Positions 3,901 to 64,000 of a stretch of DNA of 64,000 nucleotides are shown one piece after another. The first letter of the stretch is position 1, and each line of letters starts with the position of its first letter. The notes under the pieces are model-generated. The model did not search any database. It was not told the origin of the DNA and saw only the letters and a program-made list of their open reading frames with translations. The stretch covers positions 21,029,292-21,093,291 of the forward strand of contig OZ316898.1 of assembly GCA_973895155.1 (NCBI GenBank), written 5' to 3'. Source of the stretch: Marsupella aquatica (lineage: Eukaryota; Plantae; Marchantiophyta). A program made the translations under genes and the position numbers.

Positions 3901-6900
3901 TGTGATGCCTAGCCAGGAATCACTAGGCCATATTAGGAGTAAAATAGGAGGGTATACAATAAACCATTAGTATAAGGGCAAAAAAACTGGGAAACCATAA
4001 ACAATTAAGGGCATACATGGAACCAAAGCCGAGGCGCAAGAGGAGTAACGGGTACTAGGTCACGATTAGGGTTAAGGCACGTAACCCTGGCAGCTGCCGG
4101 TAATCGGTACCAAGACATACAGTGCAGGCCGGAAGGAAGGGGGGGTAAGGCAAGGCAACCCAGGAGTGACAGCTCACATTCACACCTTGAGCAAGCAGAA
4201 GCCAATGACTATCAGCTGCAAAGGAGAACATGGGGGGGCATAAGCAGCTACTGAGCAATGCCAGAGAAGGGAATGAGCGATATCAATCAAGCAACACATT
4301 TTTGGGGATGCTTGTTTAAACGGGCAAGTGAGTACGTCGGGACTTACGAGGAGGAAGAATCAGGAAGAGTAGCCTGCGAGCGACAGGAGCTTGCTCGACT
4401 GTGGGAACTATAGAAGACGGCCTTCTTAGGAGGAGAATTCATCAAGGCTGAATTCTTGTGGACACCTACTGGCGACAAGCTTTACAACCTTCTAATTCAA
4501 GACAATAGAATTGTCGGCATTTGGCAAGCCATCAACAATTGCAACGACAAACATCGGGACCTGAAAGGTTGCACGGCGGCGTGGACAAAAGCAATAGTGT
4601 TGGGAGAATCTTCCGGTGCGGCTGAAATGAAGAGGAAGATGGCCAACAATGAAGAAAACACACCACCCAAGAGGACAAGGTTGGCAGTATCAAGGAAGCC
4701 GGCCGAACAGGGGAGGCAAAGAGAGGAGGAAGCCAAGGAACAAGAAGTCGACCCAGTCAATGTCATCCCTACCCGAGATGACACTTGGAAGGGATGGGCG
4801 GCAATAATACCACTGGCTGTGCAACTACATTTTGCACGAGAAGAGGATGCATGCTTTACAACCATGCAGACCAAGAAGTACTAGGGCTTCATGGCCGGAT
4901 CAGGCTTGGAGACCCTTTGTAAGACTGTCATGGCTGAAAAAGGAAGTGCCAAAATTGGACTTACTGGAATTTGTGGGATCATGGGACCACGAGACTAGCT
5001 CCACAAAGATCTATAGAAGGGACTTCTATCTCACCTCCAACGTGATTGCCGAAGTGTTTGGCTTGCCGATGGGCAACAAGGCTAAGGTAGAAGCCCGGAA
5101 GAACTTGCCGGACAAGGAGTTTAGATCGTTCCCCGGGCCGTCAACAAAGAATGGCTTTCTCCGAAGCACCTGCACCAACCCGCATATTGGAGAAATGATT
5201 GATTTCCTACGGGTAACAATGCATTGCAAAGTCTGGCCAAGGCCGGAGATTGGCAAGGCAAAGGTTTACCTGGCAGAGAGGCCAGACCCAAGCCGGGATT
5301 ACAATGGGTACCTCCTCAACCAACTCAAAAAGATATTGAGGGAGGAATAGCAGGTGATTAGCCAAGGGAGCGTGTCCCGGCTTGGTTATCACATGTTGTT
5401 GTTATGCCGGTATGCCCGGAGTCAAATCTTTGCCCCGATCCTTTCCCTACAGGCTAGAGCACCAGAAGAGGAATCAAAACCAAGGCCGGCAGCAAAGCAG
5501 TCCGACCCGCCTGACAGCCCCATGATAGCTCAGGTCTTCCGACAGGTGCCGGCAACCGGGCCGATGCAACAACCGGCCATGCAGAGCCTCCTACACATAC
5601 TGAAGAAAGAGAAGGCGGCTCTAGCACCAGAGGCAGTTAGTAGCAACGGGCACCAGAAGAACCGCTAGAGGAGAACCCATGGTCTGGGCCATAAAAAGAA
5701 GCAAAAAACAAGCCAGGGGTACGGATGTATGTAGGAGCCTCTAGTGAAGAATCAGAGGAACTGGGACCCAGGGTTCCCAGTCCTGAAAAGGAGTGCGGCA
5801 ATCAGGTGCGGGAGTCGGGAGGGCAAGCCGCACGCATGTATAATCCTTGCCAAGAGGCCGGGTTTACAGCTAGTCCTAGAGAGGACAAGCAGGCACCAGG
5901 ACGCCCAGAGGCCAGGGAATACATGGGGGAATACCATGAGGACTTGGGTTACGGGTCGGATCGCTCGGTACCAGGGTGCGGACCTGCGGCCATTTTATCC
6001 CCAAACTACCAAGAGTGGTCGGTGGGGATCCACAACAGGTGGGGAGCCCGGAGTCTCCCCCATCGGACGTACCTCCACCAATTTTTGACGGGAGACAACA
6101 GGCCGATCATAAGTTGCAGCAACAATTCAGTGACCTGGAGGAAGCAACCCTAGCCAAGGAGAAGGATTTGCTAGGCGGTGGATGGCCGGAGGACATTCGG
6201 CGACTTGCAGGGACTCAAGCCGGGCCTTTGCCCACATTTGAGGAGATATGGAGGGTGGCTTGGGAAAGAAGGCCACGTTGGGAGATGCCAACATCTCCTA
6301 ACCACTCCACCTATGCACGTTCCAGAGCCCTGGAGTATGGGAGGATGTGCGGGCTACTCGCCCTCGACATCTTTGGGGTAGAATTGGAGACAGGGCCTTT
6401 CGTTCATAAGGAGATGTTGGAGAAAAGCTGATTGGAGGACGCACTGGCCTTGGAGAGGATGAAGAAGGAGCTAGTCATCCGACGACTAAAAGAGAAGGAA
6501 GCCGAGGCTGGAGAGTTAAAGGTGGCCAAGCAGGCCTAGGACTATCATGCAGGGGCAACTAGCCCAGACTCAAGAAGACTTGACCGAAGCCCTCAAGGAG
6601 AAGGAGAAGTGGAAGCAAGAGGTGAAGAAGGTAGAGGCTTGCAACAGAGCCATAACCGAGGCCCAAAAGAAGGAGCGGGCATTGAAGGATGAGATCAAAG
6701 AATGTTGCAAGGCCCTTCATCAAAAACAAGCCAAACTTGATGAGACCCACTGGGGCATCGACAAGTTGAAGGGAGACCTGGAAGACCTGTCGCCCAACTT
6801 TCAAGCCGAGCTGCGGAAGAAGGATGACATGCTCGATCAAACCTACAACAAAATGAATAAGATCAAGTTTGATGTCGTCCATGAGCTCAACGCAGAGCTA

Positions 6901-8010
6901 AAGGCAACCCAAGAGGAGAGGGCGGCCTTACGGAAGGAGTTGGACGAGAACCTAGCAGAGTTGGAGCAAGCCCGTGGGGATTTAGACAAAACCCTGGTGG
7001 AGTTGGAGGACGCCACCCAAAAGATGGAGAATCTGCAAAGGCGGGCGAACAACCAAACTGAGCGGTTGAGGAAGCAGTCCGAGGAGCTAAATCGGCTGGC
7101 CGCAACAAGTGGACCCCCGATAGCGGCAACAGGGTTGCAGGGCGTGGTACTAACCAAGCAACAAGTCATGGTATCCTCACCCTTGCCGGAAGTAAGTGGC
7201 AAGGGGAAGGCACCAGCTGCTTGGGTGGGGAAGGACAAAAAGCGGAAGCCTTCTGGGTCAGGGAGCCATACCGTTTGTCAGGCCACCGTGGCTGAGGTGG
7301 AGAGCATGGCACCAGCCTTATGCAAGGTTGTGGCCGTCAAGGAAGCAGTCCGGGAGGTAGGCCAAGAAGACCAGTTGGGGGAGGCCATGACAGGCATCGA
7401 CCCAAGGTTGCCAACCATTGATCCGCATCAACCACAACCTTGGGAGGACGAGACAACCCGACTCATAGAACAAGCCTATGAGGAGGACCACTATGGCAAG
7501 GTAGCCGATGCCGGGAAGGAGAGTAGAGGAGCTGCAGGGGTGGGACCCCCACAGACAGAAGCCGGGCAGACAGAAGCCGGGGTGGTGGAAGCCGGACAGG
7601 CAGAAGCCGATGAAGCCTCGGCCAAAGGAGGGCAAGCATTGAGGCCTTAGTTCAACTAAGGAGAGAAAGTAAGTTTAGAAGCAGGGAGAGTTGGATGTGT
7701 TGAGCTAAGAGGGCTCTTAGCGGCTACCCAAGCTGATTGGGCATCATTTTGGGGGCGGAATCCAAACATACCTGAAGGAAGACTAATAGGAGAGATGGAA
7801 GTGAGGCCTAGAAATAAGCCGAGTACATATCTCATGACCCGATGAAGGATCTGTCCAGTATATGTGGTTAAAACGTTAGTACAATAGTGAGAGGAAAGCA
7901 GCGTCCCATGCCGATAAACCTTGGAATCGGCCTTGGCAAGCGAGAAACCGGTGGGAATCGGCTTGCTCAGGGAGGGTTCTTGGGTTTAGAGAGGCATGGG
8001 TCGCGCCACG
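3901..8010 (+). mobile_element. Unclassified TG..CA-type element, copy A (4110 bp, diverged subfamily)
   Basis: Starts TGTGATGCCTAGCCAGGAATCAC as in the other copies and ends GGCATGGGTCGCGCCACG (copy B ends GCCATGGGACGCACCACA). Flanked by CTCGG (3896-3900) and CCCGG (8011-8015), a 5-bp TSD with one mismatch. Collinear with copy B but lacks most of the sequence between the ORF end and the structured 3' block. Confidence 0.85.
4017..7650 (+). pseudogene. Disrupted ORF of copy A (PMD-like core plus coiled coil)
   Basis: ORF pieces 4456-4884, 4832-5350, 5354-5668, 5976-6431 and 6547-7650 align in order to the 1032-aa ORF of copy B (PTRDDTWKGWAA, LLEFVGSW, TCTNPHIGEMIDFLRVTMHC, KKRKPSGS). Broken by stops and frameshifts. 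Confidence 0.85.
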
Positions 8011-9300: not shown

Positions 9301-9309
9301 TATAGTTGA

Positions 9310-15100: not shown

Positions 15101-15435
15101 CTTTCATATATCACAGGATATTACTAACTTATCTGACCCAAAATCTGTCAAAGAAGCACAAAACCAAGCAGATTGGCCTAAATGGAAAATAGCCATGAAC
15201 TCTGAGTTAGACTCTTTGATCTCTCGAAAAGTATTTGGTCCTATAACCATTGCTACCCCAGACCAACACCTTACTGGGTACAGAATCATATTTACCAAAA
15301 AGAGGAATTCCCAAGGAGAAATTGTGAGATATAAAGCTCGACTCGTTGCAAAGGGATATACTCAAATCTATGGCACAGATTATGACCTAACTTATTCACC
15401 AGTCATGGATGTAACTACTTATCGCTACTTGATAG

Positions 15436-18400
15436 TGTGATGCCTAGACAGGAATCACTCGGCCGGTTAAGTGGGTAAAGCAGGAAGGCACCCTAGGAAC
15501 ACCTTAGTATAGGGACAAAACAAGGAAAATATAAACAATTAGGGGCAACCATGGAACCCGGGCAGAGGCCGGAGGTAAGGCTAAGGGTGAAAACCCGATT
15601 AGGGTTAGGGCGCGTTAAGCGTCGGCGGCTAGGAAGGATCAACGGGAAGAAGGACCGGCAGAGGAGAGGGGTAAGGAGCGCTTGCAGGAGATGGTGGCTC
15701 ATTTGCGAGCACGAACTAGGCAGACGACTACGGGAGGCCAACTACTGTCAGCTGCTTAGGCAAGCACTTGGGGAGAGAGTAGATACCGATGATCGACCTA
15801 AGGAGGGTATGAGCAGCGTCAATCAAGCGGCACATTTCTGGGGATGCCTGTTCGAACGGGCAACTGAGTACATCAAGACTTACGAGGACGAGGAGTCAGA
15901 AAGGGCAGCTCGAGAACGGCAGGAGCTCGCTCGATTGTGGGAGCTGCACAAGACGGCTTTCTTAGGAGGCGAACTCATCAAGGACGAGTTCCTGTGGACG
16001 CCTACTTCCAATCAACTCGACGATCTTCTGTTTTGCAAAGACAGCGTCGTCGGCATCCGAGAGGCCATCAAGAACTGCAACGACATACACTGGGAATTAA
16101 AGGGTAGCACGGAAAGGTGGACCCAGGCAATGGTGCTAGGAGAAACCTCCACGGCAGCAGAGATGAAGAGGAAGGGAGCCGTCAACGATGAAGCCACCCC
16201 GGCAAAAAGAATGAGGTCGGCGGCACCAAAGAAGCCAGCCGAGCAGCAGAGCAGGAGGCAGGGAGAAGCCGAAGAGGAGGAGGTCGATCCCATCAAGGCC
16301 ATTCCAACCAGGGATGACACCTGGAAGGGCTGGGCGGCAACCCTACCGGTGGAGGTGCAACTACATTTTGCACGGGAGGAGGATGCATGCTTTACGGCCA
16401 TGCAGACCAAGAAGTACCAAGGCTTCATGGCCGGATCCGGCTTGGAGGCCTTTGTAAGATTACCATGGCTGAAGCCGGAGGTACCGGAGTCAGACCTATT
16501 AGAATTCGTGGGGTCATGGGAACCCGAGACCAATTGCACGAGGATATATGGGAAGGATTTCTATCTTACTCCCAAGGTAATTGCCGAAGTGTTTGGCTTG
16601 CCGATAGGCAATAAGACCAAAGTTGATACCAGGAAGACCTTGCCTGACAAGGAGTTCCGGTCGTTCCCCGGGCCATCAACGAAGAATGGCTTCTTCCGGA
16701 ACACCTGCACCAACCCGCACATAGGAGAGATGATCGACTTCTTGCGGGTGACCATGCATTGTAACTTGCCGAGGGCAGAGATCGGCAAGGCACAGGTCTA
16801 TCTGGCAGAAAGGCCAGACCCAAGCCGGGACTACAACGGGTACCTCCTCAACCAATTGAAGAAGATCTTAAAGGAGGAGCAGCAGGTAATCGGCATGGGG
16901 AGCGTGTCGCGGCTTGGCTATCACATGCCGCTGTTGTGCCGGTATGCCAGAAGTCAGACTTTTGCCCCGGTACTTCCCCTGCAGGTAAGGGCACCCGAGG
17001 AAGCTCCAACGCCGAGGCCGTTGGCTGAGAAGCCTCAACCACCTGTTAGTCCTACGATCGAGCAGGTGTTTAGGCCCAGGAAGGAAGACTTGCCGATGCA
17101 GCAACCAGGCATGCAGAGTCTGCTGAAACTACTGGAGAAAGAAAAGAAATTGGCATCGGCAACAACAACGGCAACGGCAACAATGCAGGACACTACTACA
17201 GAGGTAGGCCTACACCGGCTCACAAGAGAAAACCCCTTTGCTGGAGACAAGAAGAGAATCAGGCCGGAATCCAAGCCAGGTGTTCGAATGTACGTGGGAA
17301 CCTCAAGCTCCGAATCTGAGGCAGAATTGCCTGAAGCTCCTACCGACGAAGAGGAGAGGGAGAAGCCGGACGTCCAAGAGGTAGAGGAGGCAGTGGAGGA
17401 CTGCAGCCATGATAATTCCGGCTATGGGTCGGACCATCACGTTCTAGGAGTAAGGACCTGTGGCCGGTTTGTCCCCACACTTCCAAGGGTAGTGCGAGGG
17501 GACCCCAACCAGCAGAGTAGCCCTGAGTCTCCCCCACCAGATGTTGCTCCCCCGAGCTTTGACGGCATAAAACAGACGGTGCAGGAATTTCAGGAGCGAA
17601 TCAAGCAGGAGGAAGAGGCCGCCCTGGCTAAGGAAAAGGATTTACCAGGAGGAGATTGGCCGGAGGACATCAGGCGGCTAGCCGAAAAAGGAAGCAAACC
17701 TCTAGCCACAATTGAAGAGATCCGCAGGACGGCTTGGGAGCAGAGGCCACGATGGGCGATGCCGATCACTTCTACTTACTCCACCTACGCTAAGAATAGA
17801 GCCATGGAGTATGGTGAGATGTGTGGGGAACTTGCGCTCGGCATCTTTGGAGAGGAGTTGGAGATAGGACCCTTTTTTCATAGGGAGCAGTTGGAGAAGC
17901 ACCAATTAGAAGAAGCGGTGGCTTTAGAGAGAAGCAAGAAGGACGAGGTCATTCGGCGGCTTAGGAGGATGGAAGCCGAGATTGAAGATCTAAGGGCGGC
18001 CAAGAAAGCCCAAGATGAACTGCGGATTAAACGACATGAGCTGAACATCATGCAGGGGCAGTTGGACACCGCGCAGGCTGATAATCAGAATATCAAGGAT
18101 AAACTGACTCAGACGCAGGAAGAGTTGGCCGACACGATCAAAGAGAGGGAGAAGTGGAAGCAAGAGCTGAAGAATACAGAGGAGGCCCACATAACAGCCA
18201 ACAGCCGGGCCATGGCGGAGACCCAAAGAAAGGAATGGGCGTTGAAAGGGGAGCTCGAGAAAATCCGCGGAGCCCTTGAGCAGAAGGAGGTCGAGTTAGG
18301 GAAATCCTATCAAGGGATTATGGCGCTGCAGCAGGAGCTTGCGTCCCTGACGGCCAGCTTCAAGGCCGACCTAAGGGAGAAGGACGAGATGCTCGAACAG

Positions 18401-20094
18401 ACTTACGCCAAGATGAACCAGATGGAGTCTGTCATCATTGCAGAGCTCGACAAGGAGCTAAGAGCAACCCAGGAGGAGAGGGCTACCTTGAAGAAGGAAT
18501 TGGAGGAAGCCCACAGGGAGCAGGAGGAGGCCAAAAACGAGCTGGAGGGGCACGTAAGGACCTGGATGAAACCCAAGAGGAGTTGGAGGAAATCACGAGG
18601 AAGATGGAGAACCTACAGCGGCGGGCCGACAACCAAACAGAGCGGCTGAAGAAACAAGCCGCAGTATTTAAATGCTTAGCTGCAGCAGGTCCATCTCCCG
18701 TTGGGACAAACCAGTTACCAGGGGTGGTAATTGCCGAAGGACAAGCCGTGCCAACTGCACCAGTGCCGGAAGTAAGTGGGAAGGGGAAGGGACCAGCTGC
18801 CGAGCCACCAACGAAGAAGAAGCGGAAACCTTCAGGGTCAAGGAGTAATACGACTTCACAGGCCGTGGTGATCAAGGAGGTAGACCCAGTACCGACCCCA
18901 GACAGGGTCACGGCTAAGGATCCAACTACCCTAGGGGAAGGGGAGGCCGAAGCCGAGGGAGTGGCTGAAGCCGAAGCCGTGGGAGTGGCTGAGGCCGAAG
19001 CCGTGGGTATTGCCGAGGCCGGTGTCGAGGCTGAAGCCGAAGGTGGACCCAGTCAGGCCGATGGAGAGTTGACTCGGTCAAGGGCAGGTAATCTGTCAGT
19101 AGGCGGGCCAACGGCAGTGGCTGAGGAGGAAGTGTTGGGGGCGTCCATTGAGGATCCACCACCGGTGTCGTGACGGTGCAAGGGCGCCGTTCCTTTTAGG
19201 GAGGGCGGACGTGGAGGGAGGAGGCGTGAGTGGGCAGGGCGGGCGCGGATCTCCACGTTTAGGATTAGGATCAGAACCAGGAGCGGCCCTGACACTTAGC
19301 TTAGTGGGATTGCGGTCCCACTGGTAGGAGCAACACTTGTGCTCCTGCCTTGCTGTACATAGGTAGATTCGGGCAAGTAGATTACTGTCAGGTAGATTAG
19401 GCTTACGATGCAAAGAATGGCGGATCCACTACCAAGATAAGTACCTGGGCAGCGGGGAGCTTAGGGCCTCTTCTTTAGCAAGTTTTTAGTTTGCACCAGC
19501 CGGGCTGGGATCAAGTAGTACGAGAAGCTCTCGGTTAGTCATACAGTGACCCTTGTGTATATTCATGTTTCCTCATGCCTAAGAGCTGAATAGAGTTGGC
19601 CTCACGGCTTAGTTCGCAGAACTTGTGTATGAGATGTACTGTTTGTATGGCAAGTGCATGGTATGACTCAGTCAGAATGAGTCATTTTGCTATTTGTGTG
19701 TCGCATTAACTTGTGTGAAGAGTGCCCACATCAACAGAAGGAAGGAAAGTAAGCAGGGGAGTGAGAGTTGGATGTGTCGAGCTGAGAGAGGTCTTAGCGG
19801 CTTAACCAAGCCTATTGGGGATCATTCCGGCGGCGGAATCCAAACATACCTAACAAGACGGAGGGGAAGACAGGGGAAGACAGGGGAAGGCTTATATTAG
19901 GCCGGCTACGTATCTCATGACCCGATGAAGGATCTGTCCAGTATATGTGTGTAAAATGTTAATAGTAGTAGTAGAAGGTTAGCAGCGTCCCATGCCGCTA
20001 AGCCGCGGAAACGGCCTCGCCAAGCACGAAACCTGCGGGAATCGGCTTGAGCTGGGGGGTTTCTTGGGTTTAGGGAGCCATGGGACGCACCACA
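15436..20094 (+). mobile_element. Unclassified TG..CA element, copy B (4659 bp, most intact)
   Basis: Perfect 5-bp TSD GATAG (15431-15435 and 20095-20099). Removing the element restores the copia RT frame ...TYRYLIAFAIQHKLLMHQLDV. Ends TGTGATGC / GCACCACA form a 7/8 inverted repeat. Confidence 0.95.
15551..19173 (+). CDS. ~1200-aa element protein: PMD-like domain, acidic linker, long coiled coil, NLS, low-complexity tail; one frameshift near 18550
   Basis: Open 1032-codon ORF 15551-18649 continued by the overlapping ORF 18583-19173. Copy A reads through this junction in one frame. FVGSWEPETNCTRIYGKDFYLTPKVIAEVFGLP resembles the plant mobile domain pattern WxPETHTF..GEMTITLxDVxxILGLP (by eye). 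Confidence 0.8.
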
Positions 20095-22129: not shown

Positions 22130-22266
22130 TGTTATACCCTAATTATGATTGGGTATACTAACTATAGTTAGAACCCATGGTTAACACCAACCAGAGTTAC
22201 CATATGTATATATTCTCTCCTTGGAATAGAAGATCATATCATTGTTGGTGTATTTGGTTTGTAACA
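22130..22266 (+). repeat. Copia 3' LTR (137 bp)
   Basis: Immediately follows the PPT. Terminal inverted TGTTA...TAACA and an internal TATATA. The CACTA satellite resumes after it. Confidence 0.8.
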
Positions 22267-22850
22267 ACTATGTCATTTTTGTGCCGACATTTGGATTTTG
22301 GATATATTCTATTAAATTTCAAAGGAATTGTAAGGGGGCACTCCGAGAGGTAGTATACTCTTCATTGGGTCATTTTCACATAATGTCTGTCATTAATGCC
22401 AATGACTACAATAAGGGTCATCTTGGTAGTCATATTGGAGGTCATTTGGAGCAATTGACTGCATATGTGGTCATTAATGAAAACACCTCAAATGAGGGTA
22501 ATCTTGGTTGTCATACTAGAGGTCAGAAGTACCAAATGACTGGAAATGTGATCTTTACAAAGGCTATTGGGGGGTGAACTTTGGAGGTACAAGGGAGTTC
22601 ATTGGGTCATTTGTGAATTAAATGGTGCTTCAATCTGAGGACTAAACGTGGGGTCACTCACGCTGTCATATTGGAAGCCATTAATGTTGGCATATTGGAG
22701 GTCATATAGTCATGGGAAGGCTCACTTGTTAATGCTTTGGTGTAATGCTCTCAAACACTCTTAGACCACATAGCCTCATATGTAGTGGTCATGTAGCATG
22801 TAAGGGTCCCGGGAAGTGGGCCCTAGACGAGGGTGCTGGCAAGGGCATGT
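22267..22850. repeat. Degenerate continuation of the CACTA internal satellite
   Basis: Diverged matches to unit motifs (ATTGGGTCATTT, GCCAATGACTACAATAAGGGTCAT, GTGGGCCCTAGA) on the far side of the copia insertion. Confidence 0.65.
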
Positions 22851-23390
22851 ACAAAATTACACTAATGTAATCCACAACACCCTCACCTCCCATGAAGGAT
22901 TAATTTGTTTGAATGAGGGTCGGGTTATGGGTTTAGGGTCAATGTGATTTTGAGCCATAACTCTAGAGCACCAAGTTAGAAAACCAAGGTTTTCCCTTGG
23001 TCCAAAAGGACCTTTTATATCGCGGGCATGATTTTTTATATATAACATTGGTCCTTAACATTCTTGTTGGCACCTACACAAACAGCCATGACCTTATGGG
23101 GGGGTTGCGACATTATAAGTTATTAACCTTGCCTTCCCTACTTAGGGCCTTATGGGGGCGTCCGGACCTTGTTATTACCCTATATAGTCAGTATTTCCCT
23201 AGGGCCTTATGGGGGGGTGGTTTACATTGTTATTAACCTAGTCTCAACTTCCCTAGGGCCTTATGTCCAGACATATGAGAGATTGTCAGAATAGAACCCT
23301 AATTCATGACCCACAATATCCACCATCCCCATCTGGAGAAATACCTTACTTTTACGGGGTTTAGGGGTCCAGCATTAGGTTTTTCCCCGT

Positions 23391-26300
23391 TGTGATGCCT
23401 AGCCAGGAATCACTAGGCCAGTTTAAATGGTAAAATCAAGAGTGTACCCTGGAAACCCATTAGTATAGTAACCAAAACATGGAAAATATAAACAATTAAG
23501 GATGACTATGGAACCCGAGCCGAGGCTGGAAGTAAGGATGCCGGGGGAGGGAAAACGATTAGGGTTAGGGCGCGCTCGGTGCCGGCGGCTAGGAGTAACC
23601 AAAGGGAGGGAAGACCAGGCAAGGGGGGGTAAGGACCGCTCGCAAGGAATGGTGGCTCATTTGCAAGCACAAACTAAGCAGGCGACTACGGGAGGCCAAC
23701 TACTATCAGCTGTTAAGGCAAGCACTCGGGGTGGGAGCAGATACCGACGATCAACTCAAGGAGGGTATGAGCAACGTAAATCAAGCGGCATATTTTTGGG
23801 GATGCCTGTTTGAACGAGCAGCTGAGTACATTGGGACCTACGAAGACCAAGAATCGGAAAGAGCAGCTTGAGAACGGCAGGAGCTCGCTCGACTGTGGGA
23901 GCTGCAGAAGTCTGCCTTCTTAGGAGGAGAACTCATCAAGGCTGAATTCCTGTGGACACCTACTAGCAACGAGCTAGACAATCTTCTGTTTTGCGAGAAC
24001 ATAATCGTCGGCATCCGGAAAGCCATCAACCGTTGCAACGACATCCACTGGGAGTTGAAGGGTGGCACAAAGCCTTTGTGAAACTACCATGGCTGAAGCC
24101 GGAGGTGCCGGATTCAGACTTATTGGAATTCGTGGGATCATGGGAGCCCGAGACCAATTCCACAAGGGTGTATGGGAAGGATTTCTATCTCACTCCCTGG
24201 ATGATTGCCAAAGTGTTTGGCTTGCCGATGGGCAACAAGACCAAAGTGGATACCAGGAAGACCTTGCCTGACAAGGAGTTCCGATTGTTCCCAGGGCCAT
24301 CAACGAAGAATGGCTTCTTCCGGAACACCTGCACCAACCCGCACATTGGAGAGATGATTGATTTCTTGCGGGTGACCATGCATTGCAACTTGTTGAGGGC
24401 AGAGATCGGCAAGGCGCAAGTCTACCTGGCGGAGAGGCCAGACCCAAGCCGGGACTACAACGGGTACCTCCTCACCCAACTAAAGAAGATCTTGAAGGAG
24501 GAACAGCAGGTCATCGGCATGGGAAGCGTGTCCCGGCTTGGCTATCACATGCCGCTATTGTGCCAGTATGCCCGAATTCAGATCTTTGTGTGGACTAGCT
24601 CAAAATAGGGTATGTAAGAAACTCATCATTTTTTTGCTTTTTGTACAAGGATAGTAAGAAATACATTTTAGCATTAGTAAAGTACTTAGGGTTTGTAACC
24701 CTAAGTCACTAAGGAAGGATAGTAGGGAATCATGGAAGGGAAAAATATGTTGTTCTAAGAAGATGTAAAGGGGTAAGTGAGGTCTTTATGGTAGGGCAGC
24801 AAATATTCTTTCCTTAGTTAGGATAGGCGACTAAGTCGGGACCGGAAAATGACCCAACACCTGACATCTAATTTTTGGCTAATATTTCTCCCATGGGTGA
24901 GGGGAGGTCCCTAGGGAACCCTGAAAAATTATGAAGTGAAGTAGGGTCTCAACCTAGGAATTGTGAGTATTTTGGCTGAACTTAAAATAACCATCTAGCG
25001 GGTCCCGGAGAAATTAGCCAAGGGGTAGATATTTTTGGTTCTAGGTTAAAATTGGGTATAGTATAGCCCATAATATCCCTTGAAAGTCTAAGAAGTAGTT
25101 TATCAACTTTGGTTAGTTTTTGGGAGCACCTCAAAGATTGGGAAAAGTAATGAAAACTATAGATGTGGGAAAACTTAGGTATTTTTAGAAAAGTCAATAC
25201 GGGGTATTTAGTGAGTTTGACAAATTCAGGAGGGAGTACTATGTCCAAGGATCCCATAACTATGCTCAGAAGTTCTTTTAGACCTATGGGTGATTTTTGG
25301 CATGGCTTTAAAAAGGGCTAGTACAAAGTTTTCTCCCGCGAGAGAACCAAATTTTTTCTAAGTGTGGAAACGCGACGACGCGGCTGCGACGAGGCTAGCA
25401 CGAGGCAGGAAGGAGTCTAAGCACGAGGGCGGCTACGAGTTGAGTGATTAGACTATGAAATCACATGGTGGAAAATCTATGGTGGGCTATTGTTGCTCCA
25501 GCACGAGATCAGCTAACTTAGGCAATGTGAAATTGATGCAGCAGCTGTCTAGTAAACGTGATCTCTGCCTGGATGCTGACAAATTGAGAAAGGGCAGGCA
25601 CTACATAGGCTATAGAGCTTGCTGCCAAGGAAAACGTGGATGCTGCTGGCTGATTCAATGTGCTGGCTGATTCAATCTGCGGGTAGGTAAGCTTGTGCTG
25701 AGTAAATTCAAAAGAGAATGGCTGGCAATTGAGAATCCATGTGCTGAGAATTGACCAGCTGCTGCAATTTACAGCAGTTGTGAGCTATGGCTACTCCTGA
25801 GCAAATCAATCACAATCCAGCCCAACAATTAGAAGGGACTCAGTCATAAATCAGAGGAGAAGCTACTGCAAAAATCAGTCAAGCAATTAGTCAAGGAATC
25901 ATCCTCAAAACAGCTGCACAATCAGGCATGATGCTAAGCTCTATAGCTTCTGGAAAGACTGGACCTTATGAGGAACTCTCTCAGGTCGACACCTGGTATA
26001 CACATAAGTGTAAACCGGGACCTATGACAGTGTAATTCGGAGCCCTTTTGCACATAAGGGATTGAGAGAAGGAAAATATCATAACTTGAGCTAGGGGCAT
26101 CCGTTGGGGCCCATATTTTTTGTGTCGATTCAAGGGAAGGTAAAACATCGTTGAGTGAAGGTAGAAACCCAGGAAAAGAAATACCTAGAGATATTTTAAA
26201 CCGTCGCCATGGGGGGGTCCCGCTAGCTTGCAAACGGGAGCTGCCAAGGGGGAATGAATACCTGATGTAGGGCCAAACACTTTGGGTACCCATACCACTT

Positions 26301-29300
26301 TAGTAAGGCTCTAGGGAAGGGTACTTACCTTTGGTCGAAGGTGCAAGGCCATCAAGTTAATAGAAGTGAGTATAGATGGTAGTTTTCTTAGGGTAGTATA
26401 AGGGGTACAAGTCAAATAAGGCCAACTTTGACTAGGCATAACTTTGGACTCAAGTACTCTTTTTGCGAGCTTTCAAGTGCGTTGGAAAGCTGATGAAGAG
26501 GACCATAAGTGGGAGCAGGTTTGGAGGTCAAAGCATGCAACTCATGTGCAGCATATTCTAGGGCTTGGAAGGAGTCAAGCAATAGGTTGTAGAGTGAGCT
26601 ATGAACTATAGTTTGGACTTGGTGTGTTAGGAGGACTTGGGGGAGGTATAGTTGGACCCCAGGTCAAGCTTGGTGTGGTGTGAAAGGAGAATAGTATATA
26701 AGGTGAAAGATTTCATTTGTTGAGGACCAGAAGTCTCATTCTTAAGTGTAAGCTCTACCTTGCAAGTTGGGGCTAAGATTGAGAACGGGAAGGAGGTCCA
26801 TGCTTAGTGTGGAGAGTGTGTAGTGACCTTTTATGTAAGGATTGAGTATACAATAAAAGGATTCTTCCAATCTTCATTGTGACCACTAAGTGTGACTAAA
26901 TGTGAAGTGTTTGAGAGCAAGAGAAGAGTCCATGCTAGGATGCAATCTTGGTCTAATCGTGAAGGGGATGTGCTGGTACACAACCAAGGCCAGGGAGGCA
27001 AGGTTAAGGTGGAGCACTACTTTGGGATTTAGAGAGGATTGTATCTTGAGGGTGGAAAGTACCTTGCTTTGTGTGAGAACCAAGAGGAAGAGTTCTTTGC
27101 AAGAAGAGTTTTTCTAAAGCTCAAGGGGGTGTGTGGACCCAAACCAAGGCCAGGGGGGGCAAGGTTAAGGGGTAACACTACCTTGAGGATCTTGAGGGGA
27201 CTTAAGCTTGAAGAGAAGAGTACTTGGGGTTCTTGGGTGTTTGTTTTAGGGTCTACTCTAAGGTGACAGCTTGGAGTGGATATCCCCCTTGCTAATCCTT
27301 GGAGTAGAGGAGAGAGAAAGAGTGGGAGTGCAAAAGTAGTCAAGGTGACTACCTCTCTAGAAGTGGAGAGTTGAAACTACTTGTGTATGGTGTACTTAGA
27401 CCTTGCATGCACATTTCAGAAGTTTTGTCAATCCTTTGTGACCCTGGTATGACATGGAGCAAGTATTAGGTAGTTTTTTAGGGGAAAAGATGCTTAAGCT
27501 CCTTGACAAGTGTTTGACACTTTGCCCCAGTACTTCCCCTACAGGCAAGGGCACCAGAGGAAGTTCCGGAACAGAGGCTGGTAGCAGAGAAACTCAACCA
27601 GCCCGCCAGTCCTACAATTGAGCAGGTGTTTCGGCCAAGGAAAGAAGACTTGCCGATGCAGCAACCCGACATGCAGAATCTGTTGAAATTACTTGAGAAG
27701 GAGACGAGAACGGCACCGGCAACGCCACCAGTACAGGATACTTCCCCAGAAGTCGGCCTAAGCCGACTTACCAGGGAAAACCCCTTTAGCGGGGCCAAGG
27801 AGAGGAGGAGGCCGGAACACGAGCCGGGAGTTTGAATGTATGTGGGAGCCTCAAGCCCCGAACCGAGGCAGAGCAGCCTAAGGCTCATGCCCACGATAAA
27901 CAGAGGGAGAAGACAGCCTGGAAGCCGGAGGAGGAACCAGGGCCCGTGAGCTGTGAGGCCATTTTCACGGCAAGACCAGGAGAACAGAGGGGGAAGCCGG
28001 TAGTCCAAGCAGCGGAGGAGGCGGTAGAAGACTACGAGAATGACGACTCCGGCTACGAGTCGGACCATCATGTTCCAGGAGTGAGGACCTGTGGCCGGTT
28101 CATCCCCACACTTCCAAGAGTAGTTCGAGGGGACCCCACCCAACAGAGTAGCCTCGAGTCTCCCCCACCAGATGTCGCTCCCCCAAGCTTTGACGGCATA
28201 AAACAGACGGCACAAGAGTTTCAAGAGCGACTTAGGGAGGAAGAGAAGGCAGCCCTGGCTAGGGAGAAAGATTTACCAGGAGGAGATTGGCCAGAGGACA
28301 TCAGGCGGTTTGCCAAAAAAAAAGTAGCTCTCCAGCCATGATAGAAGAAATCCGCAAGACGGCTTGGGAACAAAGGCCGCGATGGTTGATGCCGATGACT
28401 TCTACTTACTCCACCTATGCTGAGGATAGAGCCATGGAGTATGGAGATATGTGTGGGGAACTTGCGCTCAGCATCTTTGGGGAGGAGTTGGAGCAGGGAC
28501 CCTTTTTCCAGAGGGAGATGTTGGAGAAGCGCCGATTAGAAGAAGCGGTGGCTTTGGAGAGAAGCAAGAAGGACAAAGTCATCTATCGGCTTAGGGCAAG
28601 GGAGTTAAGGTAGAAGACCTGGCGGCAGCCAAGAAAGCCCAAGATGAGCTGCGGATTAAGCGGCATGAGCTAAACATCATGCAAGGGCAATTGGATGCCG
28701 CTCAATCTGGCAATCAGATTATCAAAGATAAACTGACTCGGACCCAAGGAGAGTTGGCTGGCGCGGTCAAGGATAGGGAGGAGTGGAAGCAGGAGCTGAA
28801 GGACGTAGAGGAGGCCCACATAACCGCCAACAACCGGGCCATGGCGGAGACCCAAAGAAGGGAGAGGGCGTTGAAGGGAGAGCTCGAGGATATCCACGGA
28901 GCCCTTGAGTAGAAGGAGGCCGAGTTAGGGAAATCCTATCAAGGGATTATTATGCTACAGCTGGAGCTTGCATCCCTGACAGCTAGCTTCAAGGCCGACC
29001 TCCATGAGAAAGACGACTAGCTTGACCAGACTTATGCCAAGATGAACAAAATGGAGTCTGAGGTCGTAACGGAGCTTGACAAGGAGCTAAGAGCAACCCA
29101 GGAGGAGAGGGCTACCTTAAAGAAGGAGTTGGAGGAAGCCCAGAAAGAGTTGGAAGAAGCCCAGAAGGAGCTGGAGGAGGCGCGCAAGGACCTGGACAAA
29201 GTGCAAGAGGAGTTGGAGGAAAGCACGCGGAAGATGGAGAACTTATAGCGGCGAGCCAACAACCAAACGGAGCGGCTGAAGAAACAAGCCGCAGTATTTA

Positions 29301-30727
29301 AGTGCTTGGCTTCATCAGGTCCAACTCCAAGTGGGGCAACCAAGTTGCCAGGAGTAGTACTGGCCAAAGGACAAGCCAAGACACTCTCACCGGTGCCGGA
29401 GGTAAGTGGCAAGGGGAAGGGACCAGCTGCCAAAATAGGGAAGAAGAAGAAGCGGAAACCTTCCGGGTCAGGGAATAACACGGCTTCTCAAGCCATTGTG
29501 ACCAAGGAGGTAAACCTGGCACCAACCTCAGGCAAGGTCACGGCAGAAGATCCAACTGCCCTAGTAGGCGGGGATGGCAAGGGCAGAGTCGGGATGCTCA
29601 GTGATGAGGCCGGTATACCAAATCCACCACTAGAAGATGTCGGGGAGGCCGTAGCCGTATCAGAGGCCGTGGCCAATGCTAAGGCCAAAACCGACGGTGG
29701 ACCTAGTCAGGCCGATGGAGAGTTGACTTGGTCCGGAGCAGGTAATCTGTCAGAGGACGGACCTACGATAGTGGCTGCGGAGAAAGTGTTGGGGGCGTCC
29801 ATTGAGGATCAGCCACCACTGCCATGACGGTGGTGGGGGGCCGCTCCTTTTAAGGGGGGCGGACGTGGAGGAAGGAGGCATGAGTGGGCGGGCTCAGATC
29901 TCCAAGTTTAGAATTAGGATCAGACCATGGAGGCGGCCCTGACACTTAGCTTAGTGGGATTACGGATCCACTGGTAAGAGCAACACTTGTGCTCCTGCCT
30001 CGCTATACATAGATAGATTACAGTTAGGATAGATTAGGCTTATGCTGCAAGGAATTGGGCGGATCCACTGCCAGGATAAGTACTTGTGTAGCGGGGAGTT
30101 CAGGGCCTTCTTCCTTAGCAAGTTTTTAGTGCACCATCAGGGCTAGGATCAAGTAGTAAAAGAAGCTCTCGGTTAGTTATACTGTGACCCTTGTGTATAT
30201 TCATGTTTCCTCATGCCTAAGAGATGAATAGAGCTGGCCTTACGGCTTAGTTCGCAGATCTTGTGTATGAGAAGTACTGTTTGTATGGCAAGTGCATAGT
30301 ATAACTCAGTCAGAAGGAGTCATTTTGCTATTTGTGTGTCGCATTAACTTGTTGAAGATTGCCCACAACAACCAAGAGAAAAGAGTAAGCAAGGTAGTAA
30401 GAGTTGGATGTGTCGAGCTGAGAGAGGTCTTAGCGGCTTACCCAAGCCAGATGGGGATCATTCCGGCGGCGGAATCCAAACATACCTAAAGCAGACAAGG
30501 AGAGGAAGACAAGGGAAGGCCTAGATTAGGCCGACTACGTATCGCATGACCCGATGAAGGATCTGTCCAGTATATGTGTGTAAAATGTTAATTGTGTTAG
30601 TAGTAATGAGTTAGCAGCGTCCCATGCCGCTAAGCCACGGAATCGGCCTCGCCAAGGGCAAAACCTGCGGGAATCGGCTTGTGTAGGGGGGTTTCTTGGG
30701 TTTGGGGAGCCATGGGATGCAACAACA
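23391..30727 (+). mobile_element. Unclassified TG..CA element, copy C (~4.4 kb plus nested 2.9-kb solo LTR); ORF pseudogenised
   Basis: Starts TGTGATGCCTAGCCAGGAATCAC and ends GCCATGGGATGCAACAACA. Flanks CCCGT (23386-23390) and CCCCT (30728-30732). ORF remnants 23502-24588 and 27525-29827 match copy B, with a ~330-bp deletion near 24070. Confidence 0.9.
24589..27519. mobile_element. Solo LTR of an unrelated family (2931 bp)
   Basis: TGTGGAC...TTTGACA ends with perfect TSD CTTTG (24584-24588, 27520-27524). Excision restores CAGATCTTTGCCCCAGTACTTCCCC as seen in copy D. No convincing coding capacity. Internal ~160-bp duplication near 26980/27140. Confidence 0.85.
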
Positions 30728-47499: not shown

Positions 47500-48190
47500 A
47501 TGAGCAACTTCAACCAGGCACAGAATTTTTTGGGATGCCTTTTCAAAGAGGCTCATAAATTCGTGGCAACTTATGTGTAGGTGGAGCCGGGGGCAGAACT
47601 AGGACGAGCTGCAAGAGAGAGGCAAGAGTATATCAACTGTGGCAGTTGTGGAAGACAGTTTTTTGGGAGGCGAGCTGATCAAGATTTCATTCCTCTGCGC
47701 TCCCACAAGGAACGAGCTTGACCAGCTATTATTGTGCAAGGGCAGTGTAGTAGGCATAAAGGCCGTCATATACAGGAATTCATTCCTCTGCACTCCCACA
47801 AGGAACGGGCTTGACCAGCTATTATTGTGCAAGGGCAGTGTAGTAAAGGGCCGCCATCTACAGGTTTACCGTTCAAGCATTGGAAGCCATCACGGACTAC
47901 TGTAGCTTGGACAAACGAGATCGTTCTTGGAGACGAATTTAGGACACAAGGAATGGAAAGGTAGGAGGTAATGCTGAGGCGTCTGGGGCACCAAAGAAGG
48001 CTAGTTCCGCTTAATCAGTCAAATAGCCAGGCAACAGCAACACCAAGCCAAAAGGAGCCAAAACCAGATCCTGAGTTTGAAGCAACAGTGGAGACTTCAC
48101 CACAAGACGATGATAAGTGGTTGGGCTCAAAGCATTCCAGTGGTTTTGCAGATGCAGTAGGGTTTTGCCTCATCGGCCATTTCCACACTT
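47500..48190 (+). pseudogene. Old, diverged fragment of the unclassified element's ORF (N-terminal part)
   Basis: MSNFNQAQNFLGCLFKEAHKFVATY and FLGGELIKISFLCAPTRNELDQLLLCKGSVVGI match copy B MSSVNQAAHFWGCLFERATEYIKTY and FLGGELIKDEFLWTPTSNQLDDLLFCKDSVVGI. Internal ~65-bp duplication; no termini seen. Confidence 0.8.
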
Positions 48191-59731: not shown

Positions 59732-62700
59732 CACTAGTAGAAACCGCCCCATTTCGTGACCAGACCACTTGTGATAGGGGTGACCACGCAAGTGCAAACT
59801 TTGAACATCGGTCTTATTTTTGAGGCGCCATAAGACTCGATAGTCATCAGTAGTCATGAGTATGACAACCTAAGACCATTGAACTTTTTAAAAATCATGA
59901 TCTATTGAATGAGCGATTCAAGTATGACTACATAGTCATACTTAGTCAACATAAGACAATGGCCAATAGTAAGCCAAGTCCAAATTTAGTCAACAAAATT
60001 GACTTGTCCATTAATTTTCATTGTGGCCATTGAACACTACGACAAAATAATGTAGTGCCATATGCCTGGTTAAGGGAAATTTACCCGACCCCATACACAT
60101 TCTGAGCCATGGGATTACGCTTTACACAGCCATTTCATGAACTATATGCAAGGGGCATAAGGGTTTGCTAGGGAGGCTTTTTTGTGGTTTGGGGTTACAT
60201 GAAGTGCAATTTAGGCCTAACTCATCCACATGCATATAACCCTTCCTGCCAAAGTTTAGGGTTGGTTTTAGCAAGACACCTAAAGGGGGTTTAGGGGGGG
60301 GTTATATCACAAGGGTGTGGGGGGTTATATCTCACGGGGGAGGGGGTTTAATCAAAGGACACACACCATTGGATGGAGTTCATCGCCACCATCCATAACT
60401 TTTCCGTTCCTGCGTCCCGTTTAGTTGCACATGTCATCCCTTCCTTCGATTGGGTCCCGAGAGAGTTTGCAAACACCAAGGCGGAAGTGCATCATCTCTT
60501 TGCTTGTGGCTGGCTAGGGTGCCCATTTCCTTCACTTTCCCTTGATGTTTACGAGTGCTTTTGTTTTACTTTCAGCTCATTGTGGTGGTGTGGGTCCCGT
60601 CCATTGCTGTGTGTTCCATCGCTGCATGCTGGACACATCTGAGTCTTCCGTTGCTCAAGTATGCATTCATAGCTGCTTCAAGGGAGGTGATCACTACTGC
60701 TGCGGAAGGAGGGAGTCAGTCGGGAGTTTTGCTACTGCTGCGGAAGGCAACGCTGAAGCTTTACTCATGCGGGACCTGTGTGGGAGGCATAAAGACTTAG
60801 GATCAAAGCCCAACGCTGTCTAATCTCACTGCTTAGGGTGAAAGGAACTATATTTTGCATTATGGAGGTTGGGTCCCAACGTGATCAACGTCTGTTGTGG
60901 CGCAGTCCACCTCAGGTGCTGCGATTCATGTAAGTTGGTTTGCTGCTGTAGGCAATTGGTATTTTATGGCACATTAGTGGCTAGGCTTATAAGCTGTGGA
61001 CTCGGATGAATATGCATGTTTGGTGAAAGCGTCACTCAGTTTGGTCATTTGTGTCTTCGGTGTGGTGTTTTGTATGCTGCCCTATTTTACCACCACCTTA
61101 CTGTTCACATTGTGGCTCCATTCGCACCACATTTTGCATTGTAGAGGTCCTATAGCCTTCTCTGAAACCTCACACTCACACTCACACCATAAATTGTGTC
61201 TAACTTAGTGACAAGACCTCTATCTGCACAGATGCCAACCTTGCCGCTGGAATCCATATGTTCACAGTGCTTGCTCGGGCAGACTGGGAGCCAAGAGTTT
61301 GGAGCCAGGAGCTGAGGGTTGAGGGATCTTGGAGCTACAAGGTGGGACTTTAGTTGGGAGCCGCGAGCTGATACCACGCAACTGTCAGTGAGGTCATTTC
61401 AGTTGTTGGGTGCCGGAACTGATCACTTCCCTTTGCTTCATCGCTCATTTCCTTTGCACATGATCCCATTATTTAGCCATCTATAAGCTGCGATAGTCAT
61501 TTAGTCTATTTCCACCCACATTCGTCCTTGAAGATGTTTTAGGTCTCAGGCTAGACTCTGTGATGCCTAGCCTGGAATCACTAGGGCAGTTTAAATGGTA
61601 AAGTCTGGAGTGTACCCTGGAAACACATTAGTATAGTAACCAAAACATGGAAAATATAAACAAATAAGGGTGACTTTGGAACCCGAGCCGAGGCCGGAAG
61701 TAAGGATGCCGGGGGAGGGAAAACGATTAGGGTTAGGGCGCGCTCGGTGCCGGCGGCTAGGAGTAACCAATGGGAGGGAAGACCAGGCAAAGGGGGGGGT
61801 AAGGACCGATCGCAAGGAATGGTAGCTCATTTGCAAGCACGAGCTAAGCAAACGACTACGGGAGGCCAACTACTATCAGCTGCTTAGGCAAGCAATCTGG
61901 GTGGGAGCAGATACTGACGATCAACTCAAGAAGGGTATGTCAAGCAACGTCAATCAAGCGACACATTTTTGGGGATGCCTGTTTGAACGGGCAGCTGAGT
62001 ACATTGGGACCTACGAAGACCAAGAATCAGAAAGAGCAGCTCGAGAATGGCAGGAGCTTGCTCGATTGTGAGAACTGCAGAAGTCTGCCTTCTTAGGAGG
62101 AGAACTCATCAAGGCTGAATTTCTGTGGACACCTACTGGCAACGAGCTAGACGATCTTCTATTTTGCGAGAACAGAATCGTCGGCATCTGGGAAGCCATC
62201 AACCGCTGCAATGACATCCATTGGGAGTTGAAGGGTAGCATGGAGGGGTGGACAAAGGCAACAGTGCTAGGAGAAACATCCACAACATCGCTATGAAGAG
62301 GAAAGGGGCTAACAACAAAGAGACCACCCTTGCAAAAAGAACGAGGTCGGCGGCACCAAGGAAGCTAGTAGAGCAGGGAAGAAGGAGGCAGGCAGAAGCC
62401 AAGGAGGAGGAGGTTGACCCCATCAATGTCGTTCCAACAAAAGATGACACCTGGAAGGGCTCGGCGACGATCCTCCTCGAGGAAGTGCAATTACACTTTG
62501 CACGAGAAGAGGATGCATGCTTTACGACTATATATGCAGACTCAGAAGTACTAGGGCTTCATGGCCGGATCCATCTTGGAAGCCTTTGTGAAATTACCAT
62601 GGCTAAAGCCGAAAGTGCCGGATTCAAACTTATTAGAATTCATGGGATCATGGGAGCCCGAGAACAATTCCACAAGGGTGTATGGGAAGGATTTCTATCT

Positions 62701-64000
62701 CACTCCCCGAGTGATTGCCGAAGTGTTTGGCTTGCCGATGGGCAACAAGACCAAAGTGGATACCAGGAAGACCTTGCCTGACAAGGAGTTCCGATCGTTC
62801 CCAGGGTCATCAACAAAGAATGGCTTCTTTCAGAACACCTGCACCAACCCACACATTGGAGAGATGATCAATTTCTTGTGGGTGACCATGCATTGTAACT
62901 TGCCGAGGGCAGAGATCGGCAAGGCACAGGTCTACCTGGCGGAGAGGCCAAACCCAAGCCGAGACTACAACGGGTACCTCCTCACCCAACTAAAGAAGAT
63001 CTTGAAGGAGGAACAGCAGGTCATCGGCATGGGAAGCGTGTCCTGGCTTGGCTATCACATGCCGCTGTTATGCCGGTATGCCCAAAGTCAGATCTTTGCC
63101 CCAGTACTTCCCCAGTAGGCAAGGTCACTAGAGGAAGTTCCGGAACAGAGGCCGGTAGCAGAGAAACCCAACCAGCCCGCCAGTCCTACAATCAAGCAGG
63201 TGTTTCGGCCAAGGAAAGAAGACTTGCCAATGCAGCAACCCGACATGCAGATTCTACTGAAATTACTGGAGAAGGAGAAGAGGACGGCAACGGCACCAGT
63301 ATAGGACACTTCCCCAGAAGTCGGCCTAAGCCAACTTACCAGGGAAAACCCCTTTACCAGGGCCAAGGAGAGGAGGAGGCCGGAACACGAGCCGGGAGTT
63401 TGAATGTATGTGGGAGCCTCAAGCCCCAAATCCGAGGTAGAGCAGCCTAAGGCTCCTGCCCACGGTAAATAGAGGGAGAAGACAGCCTGGAGGTCGGAGG
63501 AGGAACCAGGGCCTGTGAGCTGTGAGGCCATTTTCATGGCAAGACCAGGAGAACAAAGGGGGAAGCCGGTAGTCCAAGCAGCGGAGGAGCCGGTAGAAGA
63601 CTACAACCATGACGACTCTGGCTACGGGTCGGACCATCATGTTCCAGGAATAAGGACCTGTGGCCGGTTTATCCCCACGCTTCCCAGAGTCGTTAGAGGG
63701 GACCCCACCCAACAGAGTAGCCCCGAGTCTCCCCCAACAGATGTCGCTCCCCCGAGCTTTGACGGCATAAAACAGACGGCACAAGAGTTTCAAGAGCGAC
63801 TCAAGGAGGAAGAGAAGGCAGCCTTGGCTAGAGAGAAAGATTTACCAGGAGGAGATTGGCCAGAGGACATCAGGCGGCTTGCCAAAAAAAGAAGCAACCC
63901 TCTAGCCATGATTGAAGAGATCCGCAAGGCGGCTTGGGAACAGAGGCCGCGGTGGTTAATGCCGATGACTTCTACTTACTCCACCTATGCTAAGGATAGA
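59732..64000 (+). mobile_element. Second CACTA element, left end (extent beyond ~60100 uncertain)
   Basis: CACTAGTAGAAACCGCCCC followed by TGACC/AGTCAT subterminal motifs (59750-60050). Predicted TSD CTA. Confidence 0.65.
61559..64000 (+). mobile_element. Unclassified TG..CA element, copy D (runs off the window; ORF disrupted)
   Basis: Starts TGTGATGCCTAGCCTGGAATCAC and is nearly identical to copy C over the 5' end and ORF. Left flank GACTC (61554-61558). Confidence 0.92.

Follow-up and report, generated by a model that had tools for sequence, protein, structure and literature searches.

The analysis of a stretch of 64,000 nucleotides from the liverwort Marsupella aquatica (assembly GCA_973895155.1, contig OZ316898.1, positions 21,029,292 to 21,093,291 of the forward strand; hereafter the window, with coordinates counted from its first nucleotide) revealed four copies, referred to as A to D, of a repeated unit that has fixed ends, is bounded by 5-bp target-site duplications (TSDs) in each of its three complete copies, and is occupied for the most part by one gene. 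These units are probably solo long terminal repeats (LTRs) of a Ty3-type retrotransposon family, whose LTR would hold an accessory gene with a predicted VANC/plant mobile domain (PMD) fold. The repeat family is real; its link to anti-silencing, drawn from a structural model, is testable.

Copies, ends and target-site duplications

The copies were located by self-BLAST of the window and all of them lie on the + strand. Copy A (3901..8010, 4110 bp) is a decayed member of a divergent subfamily; copy B (15436..20094, 4659 bp), the least decayed one, sits in the reverse transcriptase (RT) frame of a Ty1/copia element; copy C (23391..30727) bears a 334-bp deletion and a nested insertion; and copy D (61559..64000), 93% identical to C, runs off the window end. 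The common 5' end reported for the four copies in the first-pass annotation was confirmed, since their homology begins at the identical base (3901, 15436, 23391, and 61559, with the common start TGTGATGCCTAG) and the flanks are unrelated. The common 3' end of the three complete copies held as far as the homology is concerned, which stops within 1-2 bases in A, B, and C, but the terminal letters differ (...GCACCACA in B, ...GCAACAACA in C, and ...GCGCCACG in A). The starts are of the TG type, C ends with ...ACA and A with ...ACG, and the termini of B (TGTGATGC/GCACCACA) show an inverted match of 7/8.

The three 5-bp TSDs, also described in that annotation, were found again and are different at each site: GATAG (15431..15435, with a perfect right copy at 20095-20099) for B, CTCGG/CCCGG for A, and CCCGT/CCCCT for C, i.e., 5/5, 4/5, and 4/5 matching bases, respectively, with a joint chance of about 2e-7 if equal base frequencies are assumed. 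The insertion of B is particularly informative, in that it splits the copia RT frame, which resumes past B with exactly five bases duplicated; the TSD length is therefore fixed at 5 bp, and a longer duplication of the Mutator-like element (MULE) type was rejected for B on the basis of the same frame. The 5' flank of copy D is GACTC, and no polypurine tract (PPT) was found in it.

In the terminal 400 bp of the three complete units, neither direct nor inverted similarity exceeded that of shuffled sequences (two tests per unit, lowest tail 0.05), so that the absence of terminal direct repeats and of long terminal inverted repeats (TIRs) claimed before is substantiated, the 7/8 match in B being the only inverted one. 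The layout of terminal-repeat retrotransposons in miniature (TRIM) and large retrotransposon derivatives (LARD), with paired terminal LTRs enclosing a primer-binding site (PBS) and a PPT, does not fit either: no end-to-end direct repeat exceeded shuffles, nor did any PBS-like site lie close to a paired boundary. The reported lack of mobility genes was upheld too, as gag, RT, integrase, and transposase are absent from both open reading frames (ORFs) of B in the Pfam search. An identity with CACTA, Helitron/Replitron, DIRS, or long interspersed nuclear elements was rejected on the basis of TSD length and ends, given the features generally known for these families.

The gene and its predicted product

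A single ORF of about 1200 codons, covering some 80% of the unit, had initially been described. In B, however, the gene is split into a frame of 1032 codons (15551-18649) and a 189-codon C-terminal piece lying in another frame (18604..19173), with the break located near 18549. The alignment of the other copies with B disclosed nine frame-breaking indels and seven stops in A (some of them possibly alignment noise), five indels (one being B's own break) and five stops in C, and three indels (one being the window end) and five stops in D. The gene is thus intact in none of the four copies. The coding fraction was also lower than described. Codons 1-86 are devoid of constraint (pairwise dN/dS versus B of 0.82-0.95), so the likely start is the methionine M87 at 15809, and the coding part shrinks to about 72% of the unit; the same start is indicated by a more distant gene fragment at 47500, which opens at the equivalent ATG. 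The gene would therefore comprise about 1,120 codons, 946 of which belong to the main coding frame (15809..18649, + strand).

This frame is under purifying selection, although to a different extent in its different parts. The pairwise dN/dS versus B is 0.14-0.15 in codons 87-200, 0.08-0.15 in codons 246-475, and 0.17-0.26 in codons 476-998; it is 0.39 in D (undefined in A) in the short linker, and 0.35-0.54 in the gene tail. When changes were polarised, the internal branch showed a dN/dS of 0.05 (18 synonymous and 4 non-synonymous changes over 162 codons), and the terminal branches 0.06-0.09 in B and 0.20-0.25 in A, C, and D; within this codon set, the stops are confined to the terminal branches. 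As far as can be judged from these counts, the gene is strongly constrained during the replication of the family and released after insertion. Selection could maintain a gene without a mobility function in this way if it is carried in a replicating element. The idea that solo-LTR formation leaves the gene intact is consequently retained as a potential only, all four resident copies being broken.

The 5' non-coding part (15436..15808, + strand, 373 bp) contains the conserved terminus, TTAGGG boxes, and, at unit position 95, a TATAAA in B, C, and D (CATAAA in A), and it is likely to represent the promoter of the ORF. Conserved GGTAAG donor-like sites are located in the 5' part of the copies (15577-15670 in the window), with acceptor-like sites ahead of the likely start; an intron in the 5' untranslated region (UTR) is possible. 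Downstream of the gene, a stretch richer in T and TGTA (19174..19737), unaligned in copy A, likely corresponds to the 3' UTR/polyadenylation region. It is followed by a conserved terminal block (19738..20094, about 356 bp, including a 34-bp invariant stretch), which is 77% identical between A and B, while their synonymous sites differ by 50-60%. The last 120 nt of this block (19975..20094) are predicted to form a long single hairpin reaching up to the terminus, with z-scores of -5.3 (B), -6.3 (A), and -1.9 (C) on the + strand and of -3.8, -4.5, and -0.6, respectively, on the minus strand. The hairpin was the sole outlier in a sliding scan of B (51 windows; -4.4, the next being -2.6), and its inner helix is 94% paired across the three copies, with conserved G-U pairs. 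The tandem repeats of the unit are short and low-copy (at 19361 and 19862). The Rfam scan of positions 15300-31000 gave no match, nor did the tRNA scan.

Concerning the protein, Pfam retrieved from the ORFs of B nothing but weak coiled-coil noise. A HMMER search with residues 87-480 yielded 21 matches at E<=0.001 among 1.84 billion sequences, the best one sharing 41% identity over 225 residues; 20 of them are plausible relatives, whereas P0012, a bacterial repeat protein, was set aside as spurious. Two of the ten relatives looked up could be named, and both, CAM6090539.1 and CAM6122807.1, belong to the liverwort Calypogeia fissa. Three regions can be recognized in the product. Domain 1 (15809..16150; dN/dS 0.14-0.15) is helical and without a family match, and no usable match was obtained for it in the ESM Atlas. 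Domain 2 (16304..16972; dN/dS 0.08-0.15) is predicted to adopt a fold like that of VANC, PMD, and Athila ORF1 proteins. A long, proline-free, charged stretch (17948..18545; dN/dS 0.21-0.25) is predicted to be a coiled coil. The rest of the protein, from residue 485 onward, is low-complexity, acidic, or proline-free and charged. Basic residues cluster at 206-222 and 567, where nuclear signals could lie.

The fold predicted for domain 2 emerged from two approaches. In the ESM Atlas, residues 240-480 lie near Streptophyta clusters annotated as Transposase_32 (0.89) and ATHILA ORF-1 (0.87), the top cluster (0.92) being unnamed. For residues 240-484, AlphaFold2 was run on an alignment of 23 sequences (from which P0006, P0007, and P0009, matching domain 1, were omitted), and the best model reached a pLDDT of 74.8 and a pTM of 0.76. 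When this model was exhaustively aligned with 48,161 PDB chains, three reached a Z of 2, and the top one was the VANC21-DNA structure 9LNK (Z 6.7, rmsd 4.5, 190 aligned residues, 10% identity), the next chains having Z values of 2.5 and 2.0. A second crystal form of VANC21, 9LNJ (Z 7.0, rmsd 5.0, 194 aligned residues), was the sole match among 348 re-aligned Foldseek candidates. The two leads agree, since a structural homology between VANC and the PMD protein MAIN has been reported (PMC13547354). The same source describes VANC and the Athila domain as both modelled to oligomerise via coiled coils; PMD, Transposase_28, and Athila ORF-1 are reported as the main domains of the extra ORFs of Ogre, Retand, and Athila (PMC6317226), PMD-A as encoded by Ty3/Gypsy elements only (PMC5418596), and Transposase_32 as related to Athila ORF-1 (PMC11728184). 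On these grounds, domain 2 probably possesses the VANC/PMD fold, i.e., a known transposon accessory fold rather than that of an integrase. The protein is then not as featureless as first thought, its core having a predicted fold and being accompanied by a coiled coil. A transposase or integrase fold, which had been named as the observation that might refute the proposal, did not appear in the two N-terminal domains (the models reach residue 484), and PDB sequence searches gave nothing meaningful, with no recombinase match in Pfam or in PDB sequences. As for function, a VANC-like counter-silencing activity may be put forward as the best single guess, and a tentative one.

Origin of the unit

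The first-pass annotation had left the choice between an LTR family and a new element type. The footprint (TG-type and CA-type ends and 5-bp TSDs) suggests that the insertions were made by an integrase; in the survey of PMC6317226, 93.4% of the plant LTR elements have 5-bp TSDs. The unit has neither terminal direct repeats nor TIRs and therefore offers nothing that strand transfer or excision could evidently act upon, and it is recombination between two LTRs that leaves such a unit behind. The kinship of the ORF with VANC/PMD, Athila ORF-1, and Transposase_32 accessory proteins speaks for a Ty3-type LTR rather than for an element of a categorically new kind, so that, of the two options, the first was reinforced. 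The solo-LTR interpretation is further favoured by the unit length, the kind of gene, the solo ratios of long LTRs, and a nested solo-like unit in copy C. The largest non-chromovirus elements are indeed described as possessing extra ORFs and LTRs of up to about 5 kb (PMC6317226), and in rice Retrosat2, whose LTRs are 3.2 kb long, 429 solos are reported versus 162 complete copies, i.e., 2.6 to 1 (PMC3485330); since solos outnumber complete copies there, it would be unremarkable for three out of three complete copies of the unit to be solo.

According to this interpretation, a full element would consist of two LTRs of this type surrounding PBS-gag-pol-PPT, would measure about 15 kb or more, and would be reverse-transcribed and integrated; recombination between its two very long LTRs would then remove gag-pol, leaving a single TSD-bounded LTR. 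The gene would most likely lie in U3, co-oriented with the element and driven by a promoter of its own close to the 5' end, and the core promoter, R, and U5 might correspond to the conserved, hairpin-bearing last ~360 bp. The protein would likely be nuclear, oligomerise via the coiled coil, and bind the DNA or chromatin of its own family. A bolder version can be formulated, in which the LTR of a Ty3 family of seed-free plants harbours a complete anti-silencing gene that is VANC-like and sequence-specific. Host recombination, by which a retrotransposon is normally disarmed, would then leave a self-contained cassette that unsilences the family, and the use of the VANC/PMD fold by transposons would date back to early land plants, long predating the dicot VANC; taken as a whole, this remains a rather doubtful scenario.

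Several observations weigh against the interpretation of the units as solo LTRs with a VANC/PMD-like gene. The seven unit ends visible in the window revealed neither a full-length element nor a PBS, a PPT, or a linked gag-pol, and plant extra ORFs are placed in the internal region in PMC7264820 and PMC6317226. The Atlas scores for Transposase_32 and ATHILA fall below the 0.9 line of the tool and are leads only. Just one of the five AlphaFold2 models of residues 240-484 is confident (74.8 versus 41-53), and the match with VANC21 is moderate (Z below 8, 7-10% identity, rmsd 4.5-5.0). With the domain-2 model, Foldseek retrieved nothing at E<=0.001 in the PDB or among the BFVD viral models, and none of the 23 aligned members matches the VANC, PMD, Athila-ORF1, or Transposase_32 families of Pfam at E<=10. 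A longer two-domain model (pLDDT 58) gave generic helical-hairpin matches, VANC21 being absent from the best 50. Lastly, the covariation in the hairpin does not exceed that of shuffles (127/500, with three sequences), and no motif is significantly repeated in the non-coding parts, the best one, TTAGG, occurring 11 times versus 2.8 expected, an excess reached with some 5-mer in 16% of the shuffles.

The same data may be accounted for by a complete non-autonomous element, which never had gag-pol between two copies and relies on an LTR integrase or a Ginger-type transposase acting in trans on the entire unit, its VANC-like gene unsilencing its own family. All three complete copies are indeed single and TSD-bounded, without adjoining PBS or PPT, and the strong terminal hairpin could serve as a replication or recognition signal; sequence-specific anti-silencing (PMC5735166) would explain purifying selection in the absence of mobility genes, and Ginger2 is reported with TG...CA ends and TSDs of 4-5 bp (PMC10045372), or of 6 bp (PMC6839031). 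Nevertheless, an inverted match of 7/8 bp and the lack of terminal direct repeats provide no obvious substrate for cut-and-paste or LTR strand transfer, GingerRoot has TIRs of 100-150 bp and 6-bp TSDs (PMC6839031), and long LTRs normally show high solo ratios; this explanation appears less likely than the solo-LTR one. A variant of the solo-LTR interpretation reads the unit in the opposite orientation, in which U3 would have engulfed a Retand/Grande-type antisense accessory ORF and R-U5 would be located at the 15436 end. On the minus strand, the first 373 bp are rich in pyrimidines and show a telo-box-like motif and a T-rich stretch ahead of the terminal CA, all features that resemble plant R-U5 regions. 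Extra ORFs in antisense, driven by a promoter of their own, are described as common beside 3' LTRs (PMC7264820). On the other hand, the hairpin folds better on the + strand in all three copies, as reported above, and its G-U pairs work only on that strand, the gap between the strands in the sliding scan being small (-4.4 versus -4.0); this orientation is still less likely.

The ORF might also encode the unit's own, unrecognised transposase, in which case the unit would be a novel type of autonomous DNA transposon. There is one conserved long ORF between fixed ends, the models stop at residue 484 of about 1120, and domain 1 lacks a family match; yet the prediction for the best-conserved domain is a mostly helical structure that matches a non-catalytic accessory fold, the remainder is low-complexity, acidic, or coiled-coil, and the Pfam and PDB sequence searches detected no recombinase, which makes this possibility very improbable. 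It is hardly conceivable that the copies are duplicates of a host gene (a domesticated PMD-like gene or segmental duplications), even though PMD genes are found among the host genes of angiosperms. The flanks are unrelated, the ends fixed, and each copy has its own TSD; B lies inside the copia RT frame, none of the four copies is intact, and the internal and B branches show the strongest selection. For A, B, and C, such an origin is refuted by the TSDs.

If the solo-LTR interpretation is correct, the family would bear on how retrotransposon genes are lost. Solo-LTR formation is regarded as a main route of retrotransposon gene deletion in plants, and an LTR amounting to a 3.4-kb gene and its promoter would escape it. 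Lacking gag-pol and paired repeats, such units are easily missed or annotated as host genes. The function of the extra ORFs of plant LTR elements is considered an open question (PMC7264820), and the structural link between an element of a seed-free plant and VANC21 makes it testable, i.e., whether the domain binds and demethylates its own family. This link also bears on the origin of PMD/VANC as a transposon or a host domain, which is left open in PMC5418596 and read as a host-to-transposon capture in PMC13547354. The parts are known (solo LTRs, giant LTRs, and extra ORFs of the PMD/Athila type); their arrangement in the unit was not found in print. Exact-phrase searches of open-access texts, which are weak evidence of absence, returned for an ORF inside a plant LTR only retroviral or unrelated reports, and no element with an LTR-resident gene appears in the portions consulted of PMC11728184, PMC13468544, PMC12859917, PMC7251063, PMC7466625, PMC12885004, PMC6839031, PMC10045372, and PMC10508981.

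Neighbouring elements, distant relatives and known systems

Other repeats surround the copies. The insertion nested in copy C (24589..27519, 2931 bp) is unrelated to the unit; it has TG...CA ends and a perfect TSD (CTTTG), its stop-free frames do not exceed 121 codons, it shows no terminal hairpin, and it is likely another large solo LTR. The decayed gene relative (47500..48130, + strand) comprises domain 1 and the linker, with no unit ends found; 93 bp are duplicated within it, and a sequence resembling a splice acceptor lies immediately ahead of its ATG. The Ty1/copia element hosting copy B (12300-22500) encodes gag, integrase, and RT/RNase H, and its flanks resemble a neighbouring array (9300-12195) of about five tandem units of ~580 bp sharing 74-82% identity and preceded by 83-bp and 43-bp repeats (8784-9210); this array resembles a transposon subterminal or satellite region. 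The gag-like frame lying 1.7 kb upstream of D (58517-59820) is decayed, carries a CCHC knuckle, and is not followed by pol; it was rejected as the internal region of D because there is neither a unit 3' end upstream nor a PPT. The window also contains a decayed CACTA/EnSpm transposase (33000-41740; Transposase_21, DUF4218, and Transpos_assoc) with a TAGTG end-like motif near 41740, a degenerate TATCCG/TGTCCG microsatellite-like array (42163-42416), and, on the minus strand (49425-52739), an intronless DYW-type pentatricopeptide repeat (PPR) gene of 1104 codons with 6.2 tandem 303-bp repeats at 90% identity, which points to a recent internal expansion of an RNA-editing factor. Together with the CACTA and copia elements, this PPR frame marks the host as a land plant, and the Calypogeia relatives of the protein make a seed-free one likely. 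The CpG observed/expected ratio is 0.55-0.68 in the copies versus 0.21 in the CACTA element, 0.30 in the nested unit, 0.53 in the copia element, and 0.73 in the PPR gene; these values, confounded by coding constraint, fit a lighter methylation of the copies.

Outside the window, no true copy of the unit was found in the metagenome, viral, or prokaryote collections. Word-index protein searches (one of which, over lengths of 1379-3935 aa, was weak) gave no match, and a metagenome DNA pattern search no locus. Three out of 240 metagenome candidates (L001-L003) were listed as related loci, none with a blastn match to the unit at E<=1; L001 is a bacterial locus with helicase-like and sigma-like frames. 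No viral contig was retrieved by protein (0/127 and 0/12), three viral DNA matches of 18-20 bases were treated as chance, and the prokaryote genomes were negative (0/54).

Among known systems, GingerRoot and Ginger2 share with the unit an integrase-like footprint and occur in seed-free plants (PMC6839031), but they have long TIRs, mostly 6-bp TSDs, TA...TA ends, and a DDE transposase, none of which was seen in the unit (Pfam and PDB sequence searches, with models to residue 484). The sag gene of mouse mammary tumour virus lies inside an LTR, in U3, as is proposed for the gene of the unit, and differs in belonging to an animal retrovirus, in its unrelated function, and in being much smaller than the gene of the unit. 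The rice elements Retrosat2, RIRE3, and RIRE8 resemble the proposed family in their LTRs of over 3.2 kb, in the excess of solos over full copies, and in the presence of an extra ORF0; the latter, however, is located upstream of gag-pol, is treated apart from the LTR, and is grass-specific (PMC3485330).

The VANC proteins of the Arabidopsis VANDAL elements (Mutator-like; VANC21, 9LNK/9LNJ) are akin to domain 2 in the predicted core fold of about 190 residues, and to the whole protein in that their conserved core is accompanied by low-complexity regions, which vary, and by a coiled coil. Their carrier, in contrast, is a MULE with a MuDR transposase, whereas the unit shows an LTR-type footprint, an exact 5-bp duplication, and no transposase gene; VANC targets are short motifs in tandem arrays (PMC5735166), and no such arrays were seen in the unit; and VANC is described as dicot-specific (PMC13547354), whereas the named relatives found here come from a liverwort. 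The unit is not classed as a VANC system, its carrier not being a MULE.

The closest resemblance is with the Ty3 non-chromovirus elements (Athila, Tat, Ogre, and Retand). Their extra ORFs (PMD, PF10536; Transposase_28; Athila ORF-1, PF03078; Transposase_32, PF20167) are internal, whereas in the present case the ORF fills 72% of a TSD-bounded unit and its similarity to them lies below Pfam detection; the family, known here without a linked RT, is not assigned to a named Ty3 lineage. Nonetheless, these elements have in common with the unit the 5-bp TSD, the TG...CA ends, and an LTR length of up to about 5 kb, and their accessory ORFs, too, combine a coiled coil with a globular domain, to which domain 2 is predicted to be related.

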